From a virus (Duplodnaviria; Caudoviricetes), in the IMG/VR virus record IMGVR_UViG_3300027744_000114, positions 1 to 24,754 of that record: a DNA stretch of 24,754 nucleotides; one strand, 5' to 3'. Of this stretch, positions 3,310 through 21,293 are shown piece after piece (the stretch's first letter is position 1; every line of letters begins with the position of its first letter). The position numbers and the translations under genes were made by a program. A model generated the notes under the pieces. That model saw nothing but the letters and a program-made list of their open reading frames with translations. It did not search any database and was not told where the DNA came from.

Positions 3310-3675
3310 ATGGTAACGCTAGCACCATCGGGAGGAAATTGTGCTGGGGAAGACACAACCATGTGGTTCCCAGTTATTGAATTCGGATTGAATCGCGAAG
3401 GGAAAAAAAATCTTCGTCAATCGATAGACAAAGCAATCGCTATTTGCAAAGATTGCTCAGTTAAGCGTGAATGCCTTGACTACTCATTAGAGAATGAACC
3501 ATGGGGGATATGGGGTGGGTTGAACGAACTACAGCGAGCCGAATTGAGAAAAAAACGTGGAGTGACTCTTGTGCGTGAGGGCAAAATATACATACCTGGA
3601 GTGGGCTCACGCTCGGCAGACGGACGCTCATTACCTAAGGTGTCCATGTTGCCAGGGGAGTTCATGTCGGAATGA
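3310..3675 (+). CDS. whiB: WhiB-family Fe-S transcription factor
   Basis: C...WFP...AIAICKDCSVKRECLDYSL.NE.WGIWGG: four conserved Cys plus the G(I/V)WGG turn. Confidence 0.92.
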   Translation: MVTLAPSGGNCAGEDTTMWFPVIEFGLNREGKKNLRQSIDKAIAICKDCSVKRECLDYSLENEPWGIWGGLNELQRAELRKKRGVTLVREGKIYIPGVGSRSADGRSLPKVSMLPGEFMSE

Positions 3676-5423
3676 GTAATCCAGGACAAGTGGCAATCAC
3701 ATTTCTTAGTCGCCTAACTGGCGTTAAGCAAACTGGTTCTGGGTGGATGGCTAGATGTCCGTGCAGAAGTGACGATATGAATCCCTCCCTTTCTGTAGCC
3801 GAAGGTGATGATGGGAGGGTGCTGGTTAACTGCCATAGAGGCAACGGGTGTGATGTAAATAAAATTTGCGCATCTGTTGGCATGACCGTTGCAGAACTAA
3901 TGCCACCGAGAGAAGAGTCATACAAGAAAAAAGACGTATTGACAAAAGTGGCGGTTTATGACTTCACCGATGAACACGGCCACCTTTTATTTCAAAAAGT
4001 TCGTTACGTAAATCAAGATGGAATTAAAACTTTTCGTCAGAGAAAACCAGATGGCAATAATGGATGGACTTACTCCCTTGGAGATACACCTAAAGTCCTC
4101 TACAATCTTCCGGCCGTACTGCGAGCAAAGCAAGAAGGTGAACCGATTTGGGTGGTCGAGGGTGAGAAAGACGCCGACACACTAATTGATTTAGGCATAT
4201 GCGCCACAACGATGCCCGGTGGAGCGGGAAAATGGCTGGATATACATACAGCCGCACTCGCTGGTGCTGTTGTTGAAATTGTCGCTGACAACGATGGCCC
4301 TGGAAAAAATCACGCCTTAAAGGTTTTGAATGAATTAACCAATGCGTCCTGTTCTGTGCAGGCTTGGATTTGTCCAGAGAAAAAAGACATCACGGACCAT
4401 TTGTCTTCTGGTGGAAAAATCGAACAGCTTTTACCGTTCGAGGACGTTGGCGAAAGCGAACAGGTCGAAGATAGGGAAGCACCAAATGAACAGGTGTCTG
4501 AACATGAACCAGAGGTTGGATTAAAAGAGCTGGCAATCGCTAGGGCTTCAGAGATAATCACCAGAGATGACCTGAGTGCTCAGCAGAAGTTGTCGAAACT
4601 GTCCCTGGTTTTATCTGCTGCCATAGTTGCAAATCCAGTAGACCCAGGAAGACTTATACAGTGGAATGATTTTATAGCGGAATCAAGCAACGATAATTAT
4701 GATTGGGTCATACCTGGTTTACTAGAAAAGGGAGAGCGTGTAATAGTTGTGGCAGCCGAAGGCGTGGGAAAGACAATGCTTGCACGTCAAATTGCGCTTT
4801 GTTCCGCAGCTGGGTTACACCCATTCACCTTTCAACCAATAAGGCCAGTCGTAACCCTGACGGTGGACCTTGAAAACCCTGAGAGAATTATTAGAAGAAT
4901 GTCCACATCTATAGTGAATAACGCAATGGCTAAATCCGGAGTGAAGTCAATTCAGGGGCACATCCTGACCAAGCCAGCAGGCATGGATTTATTAAAAGCA
5001 CAGGACCGACTGGTATTGGAGGAGGCAATCGAAAAGATAAAGCCGGACATATTGGTTCTCGGACCTCTATATAAGTCTTTTGTGGACCCTGGTGGACGAA
5101 CATCCGAAGCAATAGCAGTCGAGATAGCAAAGTACCTAGATACCCTCAGGGTCGTTTATGGGTGCGCCTTATGGCTCGAGCATCACGCACCACTCGGTAC
5201 GACAATGTCAACCCGCGATTTGCGACCATTTGGTTCCGCAGTTTGGTCAAGATGGCCGGAGTTTGGAATATCATTACAACCAGACCCAACAGCGGTTACG
5301 CCATTTGTCTATGATGTGAGACATTTTAGAGGGGCCCGAGACGAACGACCATGGCCCCTGAAGATAACAAGAGGAAAACGCTTCCCCTTCGAGGTGCTGG
5401 AATACAATAAGATTAGTACATGA
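3672..5423 (+). CDS. DNA primase-helicase (N-terminal Zn finger, TOPRIM domain, C-terminal RecA-like/AAA_25 helicase)
   Basis: CPCRSD..PSLSV...NCHRGNGC Zn finger; VVEGEKDA and ADND TOPRIM motifs; AAEGVGKT Walker A; VDLEN; LEHH; GSAVWSRW; ATGA overlap with whiB. Confidence 0.9.
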   Translation: MSNPGQVAITFLSRLTGVKQTGSGWMARCPCRSDDMNPSLSVAEGDDGRVLVNCHRGNGCDVNKICASVGMTVAELMPPREESYKKKDVLTKVAVYDFTDEHGHLLFQKVRYVNQDGIKTFRQRKPDGNNGWTYSLGDTPKVLYNLPAVLRAKQEGEPIWVVEGEKDADTLIDLGICATTMPGGAGKWLDIHTAALAGAVVEIVADNDGPGKNHALKVLNELTNASCSVQAWICPEKKDITDHLSSGGKIEQLLPFEDVGESEQVEDREAPNEQVSEHEPEVGLKELAIARASEIITRDDLSAQQKLSKLSLVLSAAIVANPVDPGRLIQWNDFIAESSNDNYDWVIPGLLEKGERVIVVAAEGVGKTMLARQIALCSAAGLHPFTFQPIRPVVTLTVDLENPERIIRRMSTSIVNNAMAKSGVKSIQGHILTKPAGMDLLKAQDRLVLEEAIEKIKPDILVLGPLYKSFVDPGGRTSEAIAVEIAKYLDTLRVVYGCALWLEHHAPLGTTMSTRDLRPFGSAVWSRWPEFGISLQPDPTAVTPFVYDVRHFRGARDERPWPLKITRGKRFPFEVLEYNKIST

Positions 5424-6064
5424 GCGAAGAAAAGAGTAAAAGCGTTTCTACGCGTGAGTTCTTAAGCGAGAGAGACTTGCGCATATTCAAGCTTCGACAG
5501 GCGGGCACGTCAACCGCGGAAATCGCAAGAAGATTTGGCATAACCACGAACGTTGTATCCAAGGCGATTCAAAGACAACTTCAAAAAATGAATAGCGAAA
5601 CCCTGCTTGCATATCCAGAGGTTCTTCGCATGGAGCTCGAAAGGCTCGACAATCTCCAGCAGGCAATCTGGCCCATGACCCAACATAGACGACAGGTTAT
5701 GGATGACGGAACGGAAATGCAAATAGAACCCGACCTAAAAGCAATCCAGCAGGTACTCGGGATAATGGATAGACGAACCAAACTGCTAGGAATGGACCAA
5801 GCAAACATAAATGTACAAATGGACGTACGTGGAGCAGCAACCGAGACTTTGAAAGCAACCCTTTCTGGTGGGAAATTAGCAGAACTATCTGCGGACAGAT
5901 TTGACCCAGAGGGCGAGGCTAGGCAACTTTTGCAATTAATGGGAATGTCTGGCGTGTTGCCGGCGGACATGGTTGCACAAATGCTGGGAGACAAAGACCA
6001 CGACATAGTTGACGCTGAATTAATAGCCCCCGAAGGAGAAGACGATGGATTCAACAATGACTAG
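5420..6064 (+). CDS. Helix-turn-helix DNA-binding protein, possibly terminase small subunit-like
   Basis: LSERDLRIFKLRQAGTSTAEIARRFGIT HTH; ELERLDNLQ...DLKAIQQVLGIMDRRTKLLGMD resembles actinophage HTH/small-terminase-like proteins (pattern recognition only). Confidence 0.6.
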   Translation: MSEEKSKSVSTREFLSERDLRIFKLRQAGTSTAEIARRFGITTNVVSKAIQRQLQKMNSETLLAYPEVLRMELERLDNLQQAIWPMTQHRRQVMDDGTEMQIEPDLKAIQQVLGIMDRRTKLLGMDQANINVQMDVRGAATETLKATLSGGKLAELSADRFDPEGEARQLLQLMGMSGVLPADMVAQMLGDKDHDIVDAELIAPEGEDDGFNND

Positions 6065-6443
6065 TAGAAAAAAGAAAGTGGGGCAAGTTATTTCTAACGT
6101 ACAACCTCCGGAACCCGAAACCTTAATCGACAATTCGAATATTGCTGCCGCAGTAGAGAGGGTTGCGAGTAACATGACAAACATGTCGGTTAAGCCAATT
6201 GCTGACAAGAACGACGACGGACCTTCTGACTGCCAGGTCCTCATTAGAACAATGAGCGGGTCGAGAGATAGATGGAAATTGGCAGCCGAAAAATCAGGGC
6301 AAACACTTTCTTCCTGGATTAGGGAAACCCTTAACAGAGCATCCGACGAATCTCTTGACTGTCAACATCCGATAGCGGAACAGAGATTTTACCCATGGGC
6401 TCATGTGTGCACCAAATGCGGGTACAGATTTAAAAAGGTGTAA
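6045..6443 (+). CDS. Putative ribbon-helix-helix DNA-binding protein with C-terminal Zn knuckle
   Basis: QVLIR...RDRWKLAAEKSGQTLSSWIRETLN (RHH-like); CQH...CTKCG; AAGGAG SD at 6033-6038. Confidence 0.6.
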   Translation: MDSTMTSRKKKVGQVISNVQPPEPETLIDNSNIAAAVERVASNMTNMSVKPIADKNDDGPSDCQVLIRTMSGSRDRWKLAAEKSGQTLSSWIRETLNRASDESLDCQHPIAEQRFYPWAHVCTKCGYRFKKV

Positions 6444-6478: not shown

Positions 6479-9400
6479 ATGCCACAGCCCGAGGAAATAC
6501 CATTCAGCGAGTCTGCGCGCAATAAGAGGCGACAATTTCAAACCAAGGGCCTTGGTTCCCGTCTTGGCAGGGCGCTATCAAGCCGAGCGATAGATAGACC
6601 CCGTATTGGAAAGCGGAAACGCAGTATAAGGGGTACTGATATTGACCTGCCTACAGGTGGCATTCGTGGAAGCAAGAAACCAACCGGCACCAACATCGAT
6701 GTTGACAGAGATGGATGGGTCGATGAAGGGACGAGACGCCCAAGATGGGTGGGTTTATCTTCCGGAAAACCAGAAGAAGTGGTCCGTACACGCATAGACA
6801 AATCAAGACCAATAATAAAAATCAATAAACCCGAAGAAAAAATAGATAAATCACGTGCTCATAAATTAAAAAACTATAAGTACGGCGATGAGAGCGTTCT
6901 CGGGGGAAAAATATCAATTAGACAAGGACCAGATTGGCTAAAAGGTCTCACAAACGAACAAATATCAAGCCTTCTTGTCCCAGACTCAATTGAAACACAA
7001 TACAAGATGTGGCTCGACAACTACGGTGCAGGCTCGTTGATAAAAGGCTCTGAAGAAGAAGTTAAATTTAGAAAATGGTTCGATAATGCAATCGAAGCAA
7101 ATGAATATAACAAATTTGACTACTCCCCAGAGTCCAGAGCGGCAACACGTAAAGCAGTAGAGGCAGCACTAGAAGATTCACCGTTGTTTTCTTGGGCGGT
7201 TAGGAATTATGGGTCTCCAGTATTCGGTGTTGTCACCCCAAAGGGTCGTGACGAATACGTGGCTCGCCCGCAATACAAAGCTCTGATTGCAAAATTCGCA
7301 AATTCTTCTGTTGATAAAGACAAGCAAATATTTCCAAAAGCAATGGCATCGCTAGACCTAAATATGGTTTCATTTTTCCCGAATTACGTTGTTGACCGCA
7401 AAACACACGACATAGATGGTCCTGTTCCAATGAACATGAATCCATTGCACGTTCCATCTCGCGATGATGCAGTAATGAACAGGTCACTAGCTGGGACGGT
7501 TGTCCATGAGTGGGCGCACTGGCTGCATCAGATGGCGCTAAGGGACTCCGAAAGAATGGGCGTAAAAAGCGAACGTAAATACTTCGGGAACAACACTAAC
7601 GAAAGATATGTTGCCGCTCTAAAGGTAGCGGCTGAATACTCCGACACATCAAAAGACTTTCTCAAACTACACGAAGACAGAGTCTCGTTTGATGACTCAC
7701 CAAATGTCCCAAGAACCGTAACCTCGTACGGACACGCCAATATGAGGGAGGCGATGGCCGAGGGGATGGTTGCTTATATGCATCCAAATCAAGATTTGAA
7801 AAATTTCGCCATTAATAATAAATTAAGAAAAGATGTAGAGACTCTTCTCGGAGGCAAGGATGGAACTGGACCTTGGTCCAAGGAGATAGACAAGCAGACT
7901 TCACTCGGAAGTGGAAGACGAGAAAGAAGAAGTAACCCAAAGGGAATTCGCCTTGAAAAAACTATTCCTGGAGAAAACCGCAGAAACTCCCTCTCCTCTG
8001 GAGCTGAGGAAAAAATAGAATTTGAGAGTGTCCAAAAGTCGGTGGAAGATTTACTTGATTTAACGGCAACATATTTTGATATTCCCGATGATACGGAAGG
8101 ACCTCTTGATGTTCGCGCCAGAGAGCGGGCGAACACACGGGTGTTTAGGCAAACGAAAGATTCCGGTGTTCCGGATGAGCCGATAACACCTGATGAATGG
8201 TTCAGCATGGACGTAATGGAAGTCCGCCGAGTATCCATGGATGCCCTTGACTTAAACGGTCAACCGACGGGTGAGAAAATTAACGTAATAATGCATTCCC
8301 CGAGAATGCACGAAATAGAGGAGAGAGCAAGAGAGATAGGCGAATCAGTCCACCAGGAAGTATTGGCGAGACTTGAAAAAATTCTTCCGGAGGGAATCGT
8401 AAGGCCAAGTGACGTGGATGCAGCCAGGGCAAAATTAAAGGAAGAATTAGATGCTCTGGAATTGGTCGACGAAATCGAAACAAAACTTAGACAAACAGCA
8501 GACCAGTTAGTGGAAGAAGCCCTAAATATAATAACGAAATCCGACGGTAGGGACCAGACTCTAGTAGGTAGCAGATACTGGAATTTCCTAAATGTAGACA
8601 CAGCGAATCTTGCCGGCTCTGGGCAAGCAAGAATGATGACACCAGAAGTCGTTGAGGAAATTACCTTGATGAAAAATGCGCACATTCAAAGAGAAGAAAT
8701 AGTAAACAAAACTTTAAGAAATATTGATGAATTAATTAAGCTTGGATTCTTGGTGGAGGCTACTGACGACGGCGATAGACAAAACGGACGTAGGGTTTTT
8801 GTTCCAAAATCCACAATGAATGGTGAGTTATTGATGGGTGAGGCGGCAGCAATTGTCATTCACGACGTTATCCCGACAAACCAACCCAAAAATGCAGGGA
8901 TGATGTACATAATTAATAAACCAAAGAGCGACCCCTCATCCAGGCGGTCAACCCCATGGAGAGACATACCCGAAGACTCGGGAGACTCAATCCATATATC
9001 GGAAATAATTAACCAAATAACTTCGGTAGCGGTTTCTCCTCAAGAGAGAGAAATGCTCATGGGCAAATTCGATGGACGACGTTTGGGCGGCCTAGCCGTA
9101 CCTTCGGCGATACCGGACGAGTTGAATCAAAAAATGTATGCAGCAGAATATGGCAGAAGAAGAGCCAAATTATTAAGTCTCATGACGCGTGCCGCTGGGG
9201 CGCCAGAGATGCGGACCGCAGAAGAGGTGGTGGCGCGTGTTTATGAAAAGTCGGATTTGCGGGAGAAACGTCGAAAGGTACTTGTTCCCTACAGAATGGC
9301 GTACAGGGATGTGCTTCTGGATGTCATTAATGAATTACTGGAAGATGATGATTCTAAAAAACCAGACCTAATGACCGCAACCGGCGGAATGGGGGCGGAA

Positions 9401-12400
9401 AAACTCAACGAAATAGCAAAAAGATTTTTGCCGTCCGAGATTATTAGACAAATAAATTTAAAATTTGGAGAAGGGGATTATCCATACAAGAAAAATACTG
9501 GTGGACGATACAAAACAAAAAAGAAGGGCATCTACGCAATCAAGAAAGCCTCAGGTGGGGGTGAGGCTCATTTCGCCGAGAACAACGAATTACTTGGGTA
9601 CCTACAGCCAGATGGTCAGTTAATTGCCGCTGGGTATTCGTCTATCACCATTCCCGATGGGTCACTGATTGTTCGCGGAAATGATTCGGTCAAAGTGAAT
9701 GTGGATGACAGTGCCGGAAGCAATCTCCACGAATTAACCCATGTGGTAACTTTCGCAAACCCATTAGCCAGTTTGCTGGAAAATCTATTCTTCCAAAGAA
9801 GAATGGCCGGCGGCAGGAAGGGGAAAAGAGAGGAAAGCTTAAGCAAAAGAATAAACAGGGGCGCAACCAGACCAACCCTCAACAAATTAACCGACACAAA
9901 CTGGGAAGGCGATTATGGAAACCCGGTTGGCACAGGAAGGACTCCGAGGAAAAAGCGCTCCTTGCCAGATATGCAAGTTTTTGATGACCAATTCCTTAGG
10001 ACTTATCAGGGTCGTGTTTACTCGGAAAAACAGGGCACTCCATCAAAGGAAACATTTACGGTCGGAATGCAGAACCTCTTCGTGCCCGAAGAAGAAATAG
10101 TTGCATCTCCAGAAATAGACCATGACTCAAATAATTTTGTTATAGGTTCGCTACTCGTTGTCGCCGCTCAAGCAAAAAGGGAGCGCCTGAACCCAGAAAG
10201 ACAAATACGGAACAGGACTTCCATTATGGTTACGGAACCACAGCAGGTACCAACGTTTCCGACCTGGAATACGGGTGGTACGAGGCTCCCCACGGATGTT
10301 GTCCGTTCTGTTGAGATATCGGAAATAGACCTTCCGGTTCAGGGTCTGTCCAGCGGTAAAAAAATAACCCCAGAACAACGTTCGGCCATACGTGGTGCAG
10401 AAAAAACCCTACGGGATATGGGTTTACAAATCACGGAAATTGGTTTTGTAAACAAAAAAACAGGGAAAACAAGACAGAGCCCAATATTCTCGGTATCTGG
10501 AAGAGCGGTTGTTCTTGTTGATGTAAATGGGGTAAGGGTCCCATTCTACAGAAGCAGTGGTAGTGGTGGAAAGAAAAATGTCCCCTCCGGAAGATGGTAT
10601 CCAATCTTTGGTATTGGTAAAGAGCAGGTTATTTATGATGGATACGAAGAAAGACTTCGAGCAAATGGTGGTTGGTTCAATAAGGGTTCAGAAGAAGAAA
10701 TAGTTGACTACTACGGGGTTCCAGAATTACGCAGGATTGCAGAAAACCTGGATTCCCAATTGGAAGATTTGCCAAATGTGGTATTTAACGACGTGCGTCA
10801 AGAATTTAAAAAATCCGATGTTGACAAAGTAGCAATCGACGCCGGTGTCAAAACAAAACCTATGCACAGAAGCATCAACGACTCGCTTTGGGAAATAATA
10901 CATAGAGACCTTCATCCAGTCAATACGTATCGCGAATCTCCACGAGAAAATATTGACGCAGTTGTTGCGAAGATAAAATCAGGGCGCGTAAAATTGGAGA
11001 TGGATTCACTTAGTCCGACAGTAAAAAAAGACAGACTGTATGTATCTAAAAAATCAAAATTAATAAGAAAAAGAGAAGTTGAGCTTGAAATAAAAGACAA
11101 GAACGGTGAAGTTATCCGTGTCACGGTAGACGCTGAAGAAGATACACGATATGGCCAAGCCATGAAAAGGCATAATGTCACTGTTGTTATGACAAGGAAT
11201 AACAGGCAGGTTGGCATTCTTCACGCAAGAACCGATGGTGATGGACTTTTGGGAAATCCGGACAAATTGACAATCTCGGAAATACTCGTACCCGAAGACT
11301 TCCAACGTCGTGGACATGGAAGGGCAATGCTCGCTTTCGCAAGTACCTACAATATAGGTTCCGAGAAGGTTTACCATTCTTCGAAAAGAAGTGAACTTGG
11401 AGAGCTTTTTGCTACTGGAACTGGTCTTTCTAGTGGGAAAAAACCATTACCAAAGATTCCAAAAAAATCAAACATGACACCAGGAGACATGCGGTACGAC
11501 GATGTGGCTGGCAATGGAGATGGGGATTGCTTTCCAGCCGCTAGCAATCTTCTCTCATCTCTTGTGCTGAAAAACCCCGAACGCGTTAATGATTTCAGGG
11601 TTGTTCATGGCATCCCACTAGGTACAGGTGGAGACGCTGAGGGCAAAAGATTTCATCACGCATGGGTTGAGGAAACCGTAAAAAGGACCGATAAAGAAGT
11701 AGCAGAAATGCTGGATAGATTCCCTGAGGCAATGCGAGAGGGCGCGAAAAGACAACTCGGCCCGATGCTTTCGGAATACGTCATCGTCCATGACCACTCA
11801 AACGGCAGGGAGTTACGTATGCCAAAAGAGGTTTATTATGCTTTTGGGCAGATAGAGGAACCGCTCGTTCAGAAGTATTCTTTCACTGATTTGAGCGACG
11901 AGCAGTTGAGAGTTGGACATCACGGACCTTACGGGGTGGACGGTGCAGACATTTCCCAAACCAAGCGTGGAACCAAAAAGAACAGACCATCAAGAAGAGG
12001 AAATAGTGTTTATGATGCCGGTGGCTCATCTCTTTCCTCTGGGGCAAAGTATGAAGAGATTGTGAAGAGTCAGCCTCGCCCATCGGATGAACAAATTAAT
12101 GCATCAAACAACATAAAAGACTTATTGAAACTCAGCGAGTTGCGTGTTGCTGACGAATGGACAGTAACCGGGCAAGATGCATTCGGAGACGATGAAGTCG
12201 AGCTTACGGAATCAGCAGACAGAGCAAACCTCAAAGAGGAAATCAAAAAGAATATAGTTACGTTGTTCACAAATGAAATCGAACTGGAAAACGACATAAT
12301 TGTAGAGTCTCGTTCAGGGGAAAAAATTAATCTCGGCAGAAAGATAAAAATTACACCCGTCGTGAAAGATTTTTCTGTGGACAATCTATCCGAGAATGAC

Positions 12401-15193
12401 ATAAAAGAACAAAGAGATGAAATGGGAAAAATAATCCTTGATGGAAGCAAACCTGTAACGTCAGTATCCATAAGGATGTCTATATCGCCAGCTGATGACG
12501 AGGCAGTAGCGAGACTGATTCGGTCCGGAATCCCGGAACAGCTCATAGACATCGAATCTCGTGAGAAAGTTGAACTAGGTAATGCATACAGACAAATAAC
12601 CTCAGATGGAAACACAATATATATTGGGCATGAATCCATATTCATCGGAAATGGGGCAAGAAAATACGGAATTGCCAGTGCTGTAAATGGCAGAAATGAG
12701 TCAATGTACTCCGAAATGGGTGCCGACTCAATAATCACCTTGGCGGCGTCTTCTACCTCGGACCAAGATGGGGCAACGCATTGGGCAAGAAACGGTTTTA
12801 CCTGGATGGGCGAGCCATCTAAGCAAAAATTCATAAAAGTCATAGATGACGCGATAACCAACTATCCCGGATTGTTCTCCGAAGAGGAAAGAAAAAGAAT
12901 TTCATCTCTATATAAGAACCAAAATGGAGAGTTCAAGTCATCCGCCACACCGGAAGAGCTTATTAACTTCTCGGCCGCTGACCAAATATTCAAGGATGCC
13001 AACGACGGTCAAGGCGTCACAATCTATTTCAAACGCGGAGTAGAAAAGCCAAGCCGCATAAATAGCATGAAAAACAGAATGAGAAGGAGAGTTGGACCAG
13101 TTTCCAGCAGCTCTTCTTTGTCTTCTGGTAGTGGCGAAAAGCCAGCATTCCCAAGGAAACCAACATACGGTCCGTTTATCGGCAGAGCAAACGAAGTGTT
13201 TGGTCGAGCACGCACTTGGCAGGAATTCAAAGAAATATATGAAAATACAGAAATTACATACATCGACTACGAGACAACTGGTTTAGTGTTCGATGAGTTT
13301 AATGAGCCAAGTGGGAATGGTTTCCCAACACAGATTGGCGCCGTGAAGATGAAAAACGGTAAAGTCGTTGCGCGATTTGAAACATATGTCAATCCGGGTA
13401 TCCCGACAGAAAAATGGGAGAAATGGTCGCAAGACACCCTTGTTGATTATGACGGTAAAAAGATTACTAACGATTTCATTGAAAGACAGATGTCAATCGC
13501 GGAAGCCCACAAAAAACTTTCTGAGTTCATCGGCCCCAATGCAATTCTTGGTGTCCAAAACGCCGCGTTCGACAAAGACGTTCTAGAAGACAACCTAACC
13601 GCTTCAAATATAGATTGGCGTCCAGATGGGTGGATAGACCTAAAGGATGTGGCAGCCCTTTCTCTACCGCGCTGGTCGGAAGAGAGTCCAGACGGGCCGA
13701 AACGATTCGACAAGAAGAAAGACAAATTCGTTCCATCCAATTCGCTCAAAGACATAACCGAATATCTTGGGGTTGAGCTTGGCGACAAGCATCACACCGC
13801 CGATGCGGATGCGGAGGCTACGGCAAAATCAATGGCCGCCCTAATCAAAAACGCAGTAGACAAAGAATGGTCGACTGAATTGTTCAATGCTGATAATAGG
13901 TTGCAAAAAATTCAAAAAGATAACGAAAAATTCAATTCAGAAATAGAAACCTTCCGTTCCAACAAGGATAAATACCTAGGAATTGAAAGAGTTTCGAGCC
14001 TCAGTTCTGGGGGGGCAAGCGAATCAGAGAAGGAAGAAGCGCGTCGTTTGCGCCGCGTTGCCAATTATGAGAAAGTAAAAGCAAAAGGTGAAGGAAAAGA
14101 ATCCATCTTGATGTGGGACGAAAACGGCAACTACAAAGAAAGAGCAACCCCCAACTACGATTTGGACGAAGATTCAGAAGAAGATAACGACGACGATGAT
14201 GACGACAATACGTCGGATAATGGGTACGAGCTAGTGAGCGCCGCAGAGATGGCTAGAAGAAATCAGCAGTTCAGGGCATCCCAGGAAAGACTAAATTCAC
14301 CGGAATATATGGAATCATCACGTCTCGCACGTGTAGCGAGAAATAAGGGTAAAGAAACCAATTTGCACAATGCCGACGGAACAATGAAGGTAAGAGGCGG
14401 AGAAAAACTTAGCTCCGGAGCATCTGGTAACAAGAAATTTCAAAAACAACTCAAATTGATAGAAGAAGCGGTATCCAGGAGTTCCTCTAGAGGGGTGGAA
14501 ACATATTCTTACAAACAGGGTGACATAACCCCCGAGTTGGTGGATGAATTAGAAAAAGAAATTACCAATTTTGAAAGAGAAGTTGAATCCATAGGTGAGA
14601 AAATTGAGGAAGAAATGGAAAAACTCCTCGATAGCAACAAGTCTCAGAAAATCAAAGACGCCCTGTATGAGCAGCTCGACAAAGAACGAGAATCCATATA
14701 CAAGCTTGAGGAATCCGCACGGATAGCGTACTTGGCATCGAATAGAATAAAATCATTTTCCGCTAGGGATTCGGAGCAAATGTCGGCTAGTGGATGGACA
14801 ACAGAAATACACATATCACGAGATTCTGCCGGAAGAATTACTGGGATTGCAGTTACCGGGGTCCAAATGGAGAAACAAGCAAGGGTCCTCGCTAATTACT
14901 TTGAAGGCGTAGGAGACGTCGGGGATGGAAAAGCCCTTTATATTGACTATGTGGTGAGTCTTCACAAGGAGAAAGATTCCGGGAGGACGCTGCTTGGCTC
15001 CATATTGGAAGATGCCCAGAGAGATGGGGTGTCACTTGTCCAGATTGAACCAACCGACACAAGCACCGGGTACTGGGATATGTTTGGGTTTACTGCGGCA
15101 AAACGAAAGAATGAATTTGCTGTAAACGGACCCATCGCAGACTATGTTTTCCTGAAGCTAGACACACCACAGGATGATGAGGAAGATAAATAA
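6479..15193 (+). CDS. Giant (2904 aa) polyvalent/polyprotein-like protein: 2 zincin metallopeptidase, 3 GNAT-like, 1 papain/transglutaminase-like and 1 DEDDh exonuclease modules separated by LSSG motifs
   Basis: HEWAH...SYGHANMREAMAE (aa 343); HELTH (aa 1084); VPEDFQRRGHGRAML; GDCF...HHAWVE...HDHSNG; ARKYGIA...GATHWARNGFTW; YIDYETTG...QNAAFD...HHTADADA; LYIDYV...SGRTLL...GYWDMFGF. Confidence 0.85.
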   Translation: MPQPEEIPFSESARNKRRQFQTKGLGSRLGRALSSRAIDRPRIGKRKRSIRGTDIDLPTGGIRGSKKPTGTNIDVDRDGWVDEGTRRPRWVGLSSGKPEEVVRTRIDKSRPIIKINKPEEKIDKSRAHKLKNYKYGDESVLGGKISIRQGPDWLKGLTNEQISSLLVPDSIETQYKMWLDNYGAGSLIKGSEEEVKFRKWFDNAIEANEYNKFDYSPESRAATRKAVEAALEDSPLFSWAVRNYGSPVFGVVTPKGRDEYVARPQYKALIAKFANSSVDKDKQIFPKAMASLDLNMVSFFPNYVVDRKTHDIDGPVPMNMNPLHVPSRDDAVMNRSLAGTVVHEWAHWLHQMALRDSERMGVKSERKYFGNNTNERYVAALKVAAEYSDTSKDFLKLHEDRVSFDDSPNVPRTVTSYGHANMREAMAEGMVAYMHPNQDLKNFAINNKLRKDVETLLGGKDGTGPWSKEIDKQTSLGSGRRERRSNPKGIRLEKTIPGENRRNSLSSGAEEKIEFESVQKSVEDLLDLTATYFDIPDDTEGPLDVRARERANTRVFRQTKDSGVPDEPITPDEWFSMDVMEVRRVSMDALDLNGQPTGEKINVIMHSPRMHEIEERAREIGESVHQEVLARLEKILPEGIVRPSDVDAARAKLKEELDALELVDEIETKLRQTADQLVEEALNIITKSDGRDQTLVGSRYWNFLNVDTANLAGSGQARMMTPEVVEEITLMKNAHIQREEIVNKTLRNIDELIKLGFLVEATDDGDRQNGRRVFVPKSTMNGELLMGEAAAIVIHDVIPTNQPKNAGMMYIINKPKSDPSSRRSTPWRDIPEDSGDSIHISEIINQITSVAVSPQEREMLMGKFDGRRLGGLAVPSAIPDELNQKMYAAEYGRRRAKLLSLMTRAAGAPEMRTAEEVVARVYEKSDLREKRRKVLVPYRMAYRDVLLDVINELLEDDDSKKPDLMTATGGMGAEKLNEIAKRFLPSEIIRQINLKFGEGDYPYKKNTGGRYKTKKKGIYAIKKASGGGEAHFAENNELLGYLQPDGQLIAAGYSSITIPDGSLIVRGNDSVKVNVDDSAGSNLHELTHVVTFANPLASLLENLFFQRRMAGGRKGKREESLSKRINRGATRPTLNKLTDTNWEGDYGNPVGTGRTPRKKRSLPDMQVFDDQFLRTYQGRVYSEKQGTPSKETFTVGMQNLFVPEEEIVASPEIDHDSNNFVIGSLLVVAAQAKRERLNPERQIRNRTSIMVTEPQQVPTFPTWNTGGTRLPTDVVRSVEISEIDLPVQGLSSGKKITPEQRSAIRGAEKTLRDMGLQITEIGFVNKKTGKTRQSPIFSVSGRAVVLVDVNGVRVPFYRSSGSGGKKNVPSGRWYPIFGIGKEQVIYDGYEERLRANGGWFNKGSEEEIVDYYGVPELRRIAENLDSQLEDLPNVVFNDVRQEFKKSDVDKVAIDAGVKTKPMHRSINDSLWEIIHRDLHPVNTYRESPRENIDAVVAKIKSGRVKLEMDSLSPTVKKDRLYVSKKSKLIRKREVELEIKDKNGEVIRVTVDAEEDTRYGQAMKRHNVTVVMTRNNRQVGILHARTDGDGLLGNPDKLTISEILVPEDFQRRGHGRAMLAFASTYNIGSEKVYHSSKRSELGELFATGTGLSSGKKPLPKIPKKSNMTPGDMRYDDVAGNGDGDCFPAASNLLSSLVLKNPERVNDFRVVHGIPLGTGGDAEGKRFHHAWVEETVKRTDKEVAEMLDRFPEAMREGAKRQLGPMLSEYVIVHDHSNGRELRMPKEVYYAFGQIEEPLVQKYSFTDLSDEQLRVGHHGPYGVDGADISQTKRGTKKNRPSRRGNSVYDAGGSSLSSGAKYEEIVKSQPRPSDEQINASNNIKDLLKLSELRVADEWTVTGQDAFGDDEVELTESADRANLKEEIKKNIVTLFTNEIELENDIIVESRSGEKINLGRKIKITPVVKDFSVDNLSENDIKEQRDEMGKIILDGSKPVTSVSIRMSISPADDEAVARLIRSGIPEQLIDIESREKVELGNAYRQITSDGNTIYIGHESIFIGNGARKYGIASAVNGRNESMYSEMGADSIITLAASSTSDQDGATHWARNGFTWMGEPSKQKFIKVIDDAITNYPGLFSEEERKRISSLYKNQNGEFKSSATPEELINFSAADQIFKDANDGQGVTIYFKRGVEKPSRINSMKNRMRRRVGPVSSSSSLSSGSGEKPAFPRKPTYGPFIGRANEVFGRARTWQEFKEIYENTEITYIDYETTGLVFDEFNEPSGNGFPTQIGAVKMKNGKVVARFETYVNPGIPTEKWEKWSQDTLVDYDGKKITNDFIERQMSIAEAHKKLSEFIGPNAILGVQNAAFDKDVLEDNLTASNIDWRPDGWIDLKDVAALSLPRWSEESPDGPKRFDKKKDKFVPSNSLKDITEYLGVELGDKHHTADADAEATAKSMAALIKNAVDKEWSTELFNADNRLQKIQKDNEKFNSEIETFRSNKDKYLGIERVSSLSSGGASESEKEEARRLRRVANYEKVKAKGEGKESILMWDENGNYKERATPNYDLDEDSEEDNDDDDDDNTSDNGYELVSAAEMARRNQQFRASQERLNSPEYMESSRLARVARNKGKETNLHNADGTMKVRGGEKLSSGASGNKKFQKQLKLIEEAVSRSSSRGVETYSYKQGDITPELVDELEKEITNFEREVESIGEKIEEEMEKLLDSNKSQKIKDALYEQLDKERESIYKLEESARIAYLASNRIKSFSARDSEQMSASGWTTEIHISRDSAGRITGIAVTGVQMEKQARVLANYFEGVGDVGDGKALYIDYVVSLHKEKDSGRTLLGSILEDAQRDGVSLVQIEPTDTSTGYWDMFGFTAAKRKNEFAVNGPIADYVFLKLDTPQDDEEDK

Positions 15194-20221: not shown

Positions 20222-20337
20222 GGATAGATTCGTACGATGCCAAGCAATGACCAAAAGTGGAACCCAGTGCAGAACGGGGGCGATGTCACTTACTCCCTTC
20301 TGCGGGATGCATCAAGGCTCCGAACACCCCGATATCA
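20222..20337 (+). ncRNA. Candidate rod-shaped structured RNA
   Basis: Nested complementary blocks GATA/TATC, TTCG/CGAA, GATGC/GCATC, CCC/GGG, GCAGAA/TTCTGC, GGGGG/CTCCC in an intergenic gap before a tRNA. Confidence 0.35.
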
Positions 20338-20368
20338 AAAAGGCAAAAGGAGTAAAAGCAAACACCAA

Positions 20369-20441
<73 letters not shown>

Positions 20442-21293
20442 CTAAAAGTATTTGTCGCCCAGTTTCCTGTGTGCCCATAATCCATAGAATGAACGTTCAG
20501 AAGGTTTGAACCCACCCAATACGGCGTGAGCCATAAGGAATAAGTCAACAACGATGAGGTCGTTTTCCTGCCACGCGTGGAATTGATGTAGGTCTTCATT
20601 TTCTTGTACATTCTCCGTGAATTTCCAACAGAGCTTTTCAAATCTTAAATTCTCTTCTTCGGATGGTTCCCTGTTGTCAAAAGTATGTAAGTAAAAACTT
20701 TCTCTGTCATATTTGAACAGAGCATTTAATCTCAAGGCATACCTTCCTGATGTTTCGTACATCTCAACCGCATCATGCAGTGATGGTTCTCCCTGCTCGT
20801 CTATGTCCAGTTGTTCCCAGCTATAAAATGCAGCTATCTTGCACTTTTTCAAGAACAATGCTTCTTCTTCACTGAATAAATCGTAAACATCAGAGATATT
20901 CACAAACAAGGTGTTCCCCTTATCGTTATCGCAGGAGAATTTCTCCATATTCCAGGTAGCGCCGATTGCTGGATTTCTATGACCCATGTGCTCTATGTGC
21001 CACGGCAAGAACAGCTCATCTTTGGGGATACCGTGTTTATTGAGTGCATCCATCGTTCGTGAATGGTTTTCTTCGTATGGCCAGCATTGCTCAAACGGGA
21101 TTGTGGAGTTTGGATACCAGTTGGCATGGTCACCAAATAGCCTTGTTACCTCTAGTTGCTGTTCACGGGAGAACTTGAAGCCACGGAAAATAACAATTGC
21201 CTGTTTCTTGAACAATTCAACGTATTCCGGCAGTCCCCGAACGAGCGACTCAAACGAATCAATATGTATTGTCGATATCGGTCTTCTCGGCAC
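20442..21293 (-). CDS. TauD/TfdA-family Fe(II)/2-oxoglutarate dioxygenase
   Basis: IVIFRGFKFSREQQ...FG; WHIEH (HxE); GNTLFVN..DVY; HAWQENDLIVVD...HAV...R; AGGGAG SD. Confidence 0.85.
   Translation of the reverse strand: MPRRPISTIHIDSFESLVRGLPEYVELFKKQAIVIFRGFKFSREQQLEVTRLFGDHANWYPNSTIPFEQCWPYEENHSRTMDALNKHGIPKDELFLPWHIEHMGHRNPAIGATWNMEKFSCDNDKGNTLFVNISDVYDLFSEEEALFLKKCKIAAFYSWEQLDIDEQGEPSLHDAVEMYETSGRYALRLNALFKYDRESFYLHTFDNREPSEEENLRFEKLCWKFTENVQENEDLHQFHAWQENDLIVVDLFLMAHAVLGGFKPSERSFYGLWAHRKLGDKYF

Follow-up and report, generated by a model that had tools for sequence, protein, structure and literature searches.

An LSSG junction peptide with phage-specific dialects marks module joints in giant polyvalent-type phage proteins

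The peptide LSSG, which recurs in a 2904-amino-acid (aa) phage protein, represents a real and conserved code that is phage-wide and marks the joints between modules. The junction peptide is likely to be a protease signal, because relatives of the phage carry their own version of it at the joints and in the tape measure, and cleavage of some kind at the motif is, judging from sequence comparisons, probable. The protein is encoded in IMG/VR record IMGVR_UViG_3300027744_000114, the whole of which (24,754 nucleotides) was analysed and is referred to as the window. As this entire 24.7-kb contig is without a head or tail gene, what is said below of the reader of the motif and of the tape measure derives from relatives. 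The features of the window are as follows.

3310..6443, + strand, conserved upstream context: WhiB, primase-helicase, HTH and RHH-like gene
6479..15193, + strand, 2904-aa mosaic polyprotein of polyvalent type
6479..6754, + strand, N-terminal leader; Lys-Gly at aa 23-24, DxDxDG at aa 74
6755..6766, + strand, LSSG 1, aa 93 (pLDDT<50)
6767..7903, + strand, zincin module M2; HEWAH at aa 343 with Glu424/Glu428; locus anchor
7904..7915, + strand, LGSG variant, aa 476 (LSSG in the homologue P0005)
7991..8002, + strand, LSSG 2, aa 505, preceded by a 29-aa spacer
8003..10345, + strand, module M28; helical region and second HExxH zincin-like domain, HELTH at aa 1084
10346..10357, + strand, LSSG 3, aa 1290
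10358..11425, + strand, module M8; unnamed domain and GNAT (E 8e-4, below cut-off)
11426..11437, + strand, LSSG 4, aa 1650
11438..12031, + strand, module M12; predicted papain/transglutaminase-like fold, Cys1684-His1727-Glu1731
12032..12043, + strand, LSSG 5, aa 1852
12044..13117, + strand, module M5; GNAT-like by motif only, no family match
13118..13129, + strand, LSSG 6, aa 2214
13130..13999, + strand, module M1; DEDDh 3'-5' exonuclease (PF00929, E 2.8e-13)
14000..14011, + strand, LSSG 7, aa 2508; start of the joint in a strain without M24
14012..14407, + strand, module M24; charged, 136 aa, absent in a co-occurring strain
14408..14419, + strand, LSSG 8, aa 2644
14420..15190, + strand, module M19; coiled coil and weak GNAT (E 0.02)

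The eight LSSG copies and the single LGSG lie exactly where a first-pass annotation of the sequence had placed them. It had estimated well under one chance copy of LSSG, and the amino-acid composition of the protein predicts 0.093; in 2000 shuffles LSSG occurred at most twice, and five copies, seen one time, was the highest number for any 4-mer. Its claim that conservation is at the peptide level also stood, since the eight LSSG-coding 12-mers are all distinct and their codon likeness is that expected by chance (p=0.32 vs codon usage). No motif overlaps a Pfam stretch of the protein, in agreement with the statement that none falls within a catalytic domain. The best Pfam stretches in each of 13 homologues, which make up a small part of the protein, were motif-free as well. 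Hydrophobicity is low around the motifs. In AlphaFold models the motifs at residues 93, 505, 1650 and 1852 are in segments with pLDDT<50 and LGSG476 is at the end of the last helix; the structural check that had been proposed for the inter-LSSG segments thus places the four modelled LSSG copies in predicted disordered stretches.

The cargo is of the polyvalent type that had been suggested, with an exonuclease, GNAT, two HExxH domains and a predicted papain-like fold. The assignment of M1 as a DEDDh exonuclease is firm at the level of sequence. In M2 the HExxH and the downstream Glu are invariant (24/24 rows), and its model (pLDDT 81) has a weak fold match to the lethal-factor/PPEP zincins (E 0.045); PF18818 matched only a relative. 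M28 is confined to close relatives, with the HExxH retained in 5/5. The 'Cys-His-Asp' label given earlier to M12 needs correction, as GDCF...HAWVE makes Cys1684/His1727/Glu1731 the likely triad, and from its model M12 could be a protease or a deamidase. Fold comparisons gave modest similarity to LapG (Z 6.3, rmsd 3.8, 105 aligned) and C8orf32 (Z 6.0); a Foldseek search with the M12 structure returned nothing, PDB profile searches gave no significant match and the ESM Atlas gave unnamed viral clusters only. M24, described as a charged repeat, has no repeat structure; it is a module that recurs in other polyproteins, and M19 is C-terminal in 7/7. A tblastn search of 50,697 GenBank phages with the whole 2904-aa protein found nothing.

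M8 (aa 1293-1652) comprises two halves that also move apart from each other (P0016, P0028), so that the motif is at module boundaries, as had been claimed, but not at every domain joint. An unnamed domain in M8 (aa ~1330-1447, window 10460-10820; PFYxSxGxGxK...WYPxFG...GWFNK) is also present in 3000-4000-aa proteins of unrelated phages (loci L179-L189), which are without the junction motif. The sequence MGSG at residue 913 of P0005 was rejected as a look-alike, being within a helix-like stretch and at no joint.

WhiB serves as a marker of actinobacterial phages according to the part of PMC10914622 that was available. The WhiB gene in the window, together with the presence of the window DNA in lake-water runs, suggests that the host is actinobacterial; matches in GTDB were spread over bins of four different phyla and gave no host. 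Scans of the window for promoters and terminators were at or under chance, and contigs from RNA runs were present in 24 and 13 of 30 bins, which is not a demonstration of transcription. The window also contains a gene for a TauD-family dioxygenase (20442-21293) and an ORF (20237-20509) whose translation looks like a tRNA gene (~20323-20420). A single LSSG in the primase (DHLSSGG, window 4401) is kept in genomes G001 and G002 and lacking in G003 and G004; it is located at the primase-helicase linker and is probably unrelated to the junction code.

A search of relatives for LSSG-punctuated proteins, as had been proposed, revealed that the motif is family-wide, with at least three [LF]SSG in 42/45 homologues of 1700-4700 aa; two of the remaining three have another peptide and one is a weak match with a different repeat. 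Related S78 prohead proteases occur at 592 loci, many of them near-copies, and the best 80 were also surveyed. S78 lies within an ORF of at least 800 aa in 65 of these 80, and every one of their ORFs of at least 1500 aa (50/50) carries at least three motifs. The consensus of 638 distinct contexts is [RSKG]-[LF]-S-S-G-[RAK]; among them LSSG occurs 516 times against 5.7 expected and FSSG 91 times against 2.8, and the other single substitutions of LSSG each occur at most 20 times among those listed. Two marine relatives, L267 and L268, have the same S78 protease without the first polyprotein, and no recurring motif was found in the 10 kb examined downstream.

The 510 motif-delimited segments group into clusters, 69 of them multi-member, within which lengths are tight and whose order varies between phages, which confirms the shuffling at the motif that had been suspected; each module has several different neighbours, M28 excepted. 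After masking of the motif in both query and subjects, 171/220 alignment ends against the 40 non-collinear homologues were at most 15 aa from a motif, where the background is 10% by position. A conserved site at domain boundaries, one of the marks of a processed viral polyprotein, is therefore present, although 22/124 HSPs pass across a motif and some module joints are without one. Doubled motifs with 6-60-aa spacers between them resemble cassette ends.

Single modules also occur alone or are lost. M2 anchors a conserved primase-HTH-RHH locus, where it is a stand-alone, motif-free ORF of 311-412 aa in 14/55 new loci (two of them end-cut by the contig), while in the remaining 41/55 it belongs to a longer ORF that has motifs. 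One homologue search for a stand-alone M12 found none, but M12 is a stand-alone gene of ~160 aa in L190-L194. The genes that are split in L050 and L076 break directly behind a motif. A contig of a co-occurring strain, found in 5/6 DNA runs that may share their source with the window, joins position 14010 to 14433 via 14 letters of other sequence; the net deletion of 408 nt removes exactly M24, in frame. Because each cassette ends in a site, modules could be added, removed or moved without new processing information. No DNA repeat of the kind that defines a DNA cassette array was found at the joints, and there is no codon excess at the motifs of G005, G006 and G010, as in the window. In G001-G004 there is an excess of TCT (identical-codon fraction 0.32-0.38 vs 0.23-0.28, p<=0.001), although their 12-mers are nearly all distinct and use both Ser codon boxes; selection works on the peptide, and common descent of the junctions may add a DNA trace.

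Seven related genomes, four of them complete by CheckV, were compared whole. Each uses one of the dialects [LF]SSG, SL[SA]SG, GLAS or GSKSTT in two to five long proteins, and GFAS and GMRS dialects were found in further loci. The dialects track phage clades, and all match x-(L/F/M/S)-(S/A/R/K)-S, in which the last Ser is the sole invariant position. A register of GSKSTT as hydrophobic-x-G-S was dropped after the GMRS dialect fixed that of the Ser. The tape measure, which has no family match itself and was recognised from its position after the genes for tail tube and chaperone, carries the dialect of its own phage in 7/7 genomes (1-3 copies vs 0.002-0.12 expected), at places that are homologous between genomes; two tape measures additionally have one GLAS (~0.16 expected). 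A dialect common to the giant proteins and the tape measure suggests one reader per phage. The C-terminus of the tape measure (L084:12733-13240) has conserved His/Asp motifs, which we take to resemble a peptidoglycan peptidase (no database match).

LSSG-like sites had also been anticipated in capsid, portal and scaffold precursors. None of the 21 capsid, portal and PepSY/scaffold proteins has the junction motif (0/21); they have Lys-Ser/Ala sites instead. The proposed link of the polyprotein to the head was supported by the leader, a homologue of which is found inside prohead-protease fusion proteins of relatives, behind S78. The gene for the 2904-aa protein adjoins the primase, and its leader and modules recur in the S78 fusions and head-module genes of relatives. 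The leader is N-terminal in 26/26 and its DxDxDG is common to head-module proteins. Lys-[AGSN], a loose pattern, is present at aa 20-26 in 38/39 leader-type proteins, and Lys-Gly at aa 23-24 is a likely candidate for a prohead-protease site. In G010 (C1:49004-55646, tiles L206) a DUF3721-type head protein of 794 aa and its 1298-aa neighbour both have a leader with Lys site and DxDxDG followed by GLAS-delimited modules; the leader therefore seems portable to several head genes.

As reader of the motif the first-pass annotation had named the prohead protease or the protein's own peptidases, and the comparison of genomes speaks against both. The three candidate peptidase modules of the 2904-aa protein are not universal among motif-bearing genomes and are for that reason disfavoured: M12 and the second zincin, M28, matched 0/7 genomes each, and M2, the first zincin, is present in 4/7 and missing from the complete LSSG genomes G001 and G002. 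An ArdC-type MPTase was rejected; it is found in 6/7 genomes and is itself a swappable module. S78 is present in 7/7 genomes; the surroundings of its catalytic motifs are nearly the same whatever the dialect (score ratio 0.95), Lys sites of its own flank the core in every dialect and its presumed substrates are without the motif, and for these reasons it is disfavoured. An HslV/proteasome-like peptidase gene, which begins MTT (L089:16482-17102), occurs in 5/7 genomes and is missing only from incomplete records; its identity has not diverged with dialect, and it is kept as a candidate.

The best candidate, for which the sequence data are a pointer only, is the N-terminal zincin of a second head polyprotein. 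It is present in 7/7 genomes, its HExxH and ExxxE are invariant (30/30 rows), and in 55/55 loci it is directly behind a gene for a PepSY domain, which in Pfam has the name 'peptidase propeptide'. Of 56 core regions it is the most disproportionately diverged in other-dialect genomes (ratio 0.23, compared with 0.25 for a baseplate gene and 0.93 for the ArdC-type MPTase), a ranking that draws on two such genomes, G005 (63% complete) and G010 (88%), is open to alignment error and for the zincin takes its score from G005 only, there being no match in G010. The zincin tree has long branches to the changed dialects; the zincin and PepSY trees are both at the minimum of four dialect changes, such that topology does not single out the zincin. 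Other genes of the head module were noted. The PepSY gene (L211:5870-6499 and 55 loci) encodes an acidic, Met-rich protein with four near-invariant cysteines and always precedes the second polyprotein. A conserved 692-aa protein (L086:12943-15018), found in 7/7 genomes, has a C-terminus that is kinase-like by eye and no match in Pfam, PHROG or NCBIfam. A Cys/His-rich protein of 221 aa (L086:12333-12995; phrog_6439), highly conserved and 57-92% identical in 7/7 genomes, may be an enzyme.

The best explanation of these findings is a cassette array, in which independently shuffled modules are joined by LSSG and the packaged polyprotein and the tape measure would be cut for delivery to the host. 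The leader would take the polyprotein into the prohead, for trimming at Lys23 by the HK97-type S78 protease. The head zincin behind the PepSY gene would then cut x-[LFM]-[SAR]-S, perhaps on the N-terminal side of the hydrophobic residue, and the exonuclease, acetyltransferases, Cys enzyme and zincins so released would act apart on host targets. Thermolysin-type enzymes cleave before a hydrophobic residue. That the cut comes from a phage protease distinct from S78, with the head zincin as the best candidate, has somewhat less than an even chance. The wider proposal of a two-protease programme is a tentative one; here S78 would act at the Lys sites of the shell, the PepSY-linked zincin would read a phage-specific code on the ejected proteins, and enzyme and code would change together between clades. 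Against this explanation, the route of a head enzyme to the tape measure of the tail has no explanation, some HSPs cross the motif and some joints lack it, L267 and L268 are without it in the region examined, the GMRS and GSKS dialects suit the Lys/Arg-Ser site of a prohead protease, and the baseplate gene ranks nearly level in divergence. These dialects, which match hydrophobic/Ser-Lys/Arg-Ser, would fit S78 cutting both the Lys-Ser/Ala sites and LSSG, with Ser at P1' in an assemblin-like manner (L-S^S-G, M-R^S, S-K^S); S78 is in all seven genomes, is cargo-fused in most of the loci surveyed, and the SPN3US protease gp245 favours Ser at P1' in the part of PMC10052503 available. The near-invariance of its core, flanked by its own Lys sites, the absence of LSSG from capsid, portal and scaffold, and the usual assembly of tails separately from heads (same source, same limit) make this reading unlikely.

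Not every reading involves a phage protease. The motif might be an uncut tag, with the invariant Ser modified (e.g. by the kinase-like head protein) or the peptide serving as a handle for packaging or for threading of ejected proteins through the tail, and indeed Ser alone is invariant across five dialects, ejection is expected of the proteins that carry the motif, the tape measure included, and 7/7 genomes have the kinase-like gene in their head module. However, a tag has no need for one copy at each joint, gene splits and stand-alone modules fall at motif positions, doubled motifs look like cassette ends and the kinase-like gene is without a family match, so we regard a tag as rather improbable. 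There is little likelihood that LSSG is a mere flexible linker and recombination junction spread by cassette exchange at short homology. The low hydrophobicity and pLDDT around the motifs, the TCT-rich Ser codons of G001-G004 and the in-frame loss of M24 at a motif would agree with it, but the nearly all distinct 12-mers with both Ser codon boxes in use, the lack of codon excess in the window, G005, G006 and G010 and of DNA repeats at joints, the strong disfavour of single substitutions other than Phe, and a tape measure that keeps to the dialect yet swaps no cassettes do not. Least probable, and very unlikely, is a cut after injection by a host protease or Ser-driven self-cleavage. It would explain why head cargo and tape measure bear a single signal, and such processing is proposed by Iyer et al. 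for some polyvalent proteins in the available text of PMC5512222; the dialects nevertheless track phage clades, and self-cleavage needs a fold around the site, where the flanks are predicted to be disordered and are unrelated.

Processing by a prohead protease is known from T4 gp21 and HK97 gp4, and the polyproteins of eukaryotic viruses are cut at repeated short motifs. If cleavage holds, the phage proteins resemble the latter in having many enzymes and one short site in one ORF, and differ in that modules vary freely in order and content and a different gene probably encodes the reader. The sources for the comparisons that follow were available in part, and the comparisons apply to those parts. 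Polyvalent proteins of phages and conjugative elements, for which zincin processing was proposed (Iyer et al. 2017, PMC5512222), are likewise giant mosaics of zincin metallopeptidases, GNATs and nucleases; they are linked to virion genes, a link that is putative for the 2904-aa protein. The 2904-aa protein has disparate domains in one ORF, a zincin HExxH with a downstream Glu and a mosaic architecture, and is on these testable features a polyvalent protein as far as sequence goes, its delivery to the host being putative. ArdC-N/MPTase and ADP-ribosyltransferase modules, as in polyvalent proteins, occur in the relatives, and supplementary files of PMC5512222 may list related proteins. Unlike the proteins described there, those studied here have a junction peptide, with phage-specific dialects and sharing with the tape measure, and S78 is N-terminal, where the assemblin-like peptidases of PMC5512222 are C-terminal. 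DdrB/DarA of phage P1 (in PMC5512222) are polyvalent proteins that are cut before packaging, with a zincin suspected; theirs is one cut, whereas here a repeated code is found at ~5-17 joints. In SPN3US, gp245 also reads a short code (A-X-E) on many virion proteins, and the leader resembles the 20-24-aa N-terminal propeptides of its head proteins (PMC10052503). There, 13/14 sites remove such propeptides, in contrast to the motif described here, which is between enzyme modules and in the tape measure and not in shell proteins. Some jumbo phages have an additional conserved zincin, which might be responsible for further maturation cleavages (PMC7824862).

Proteins of the polyvalent kind are already known; the junction code with its dialects is the new element and was not found in print. 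A search of mostly open-access literature found no such junction code described. The 2017 proposal that polyvalent proteins are cut into effectors by their own zincins named no site in the text available (PMC5512222). Now that a site has been named, with five natural dialects and a ranked candidate enzyme, the question of polyvalent processing becomes testable, and the motif gives the exact limits of dozens of phage enzyme modules that are as yet uncharacterised. If the proposal is true, a site-specific protease with natural specificity variants could serve as a reagent, and, should the two-protease programme hold, several genes of these phages would be plug-in arrays that accept any enzyme cassette.
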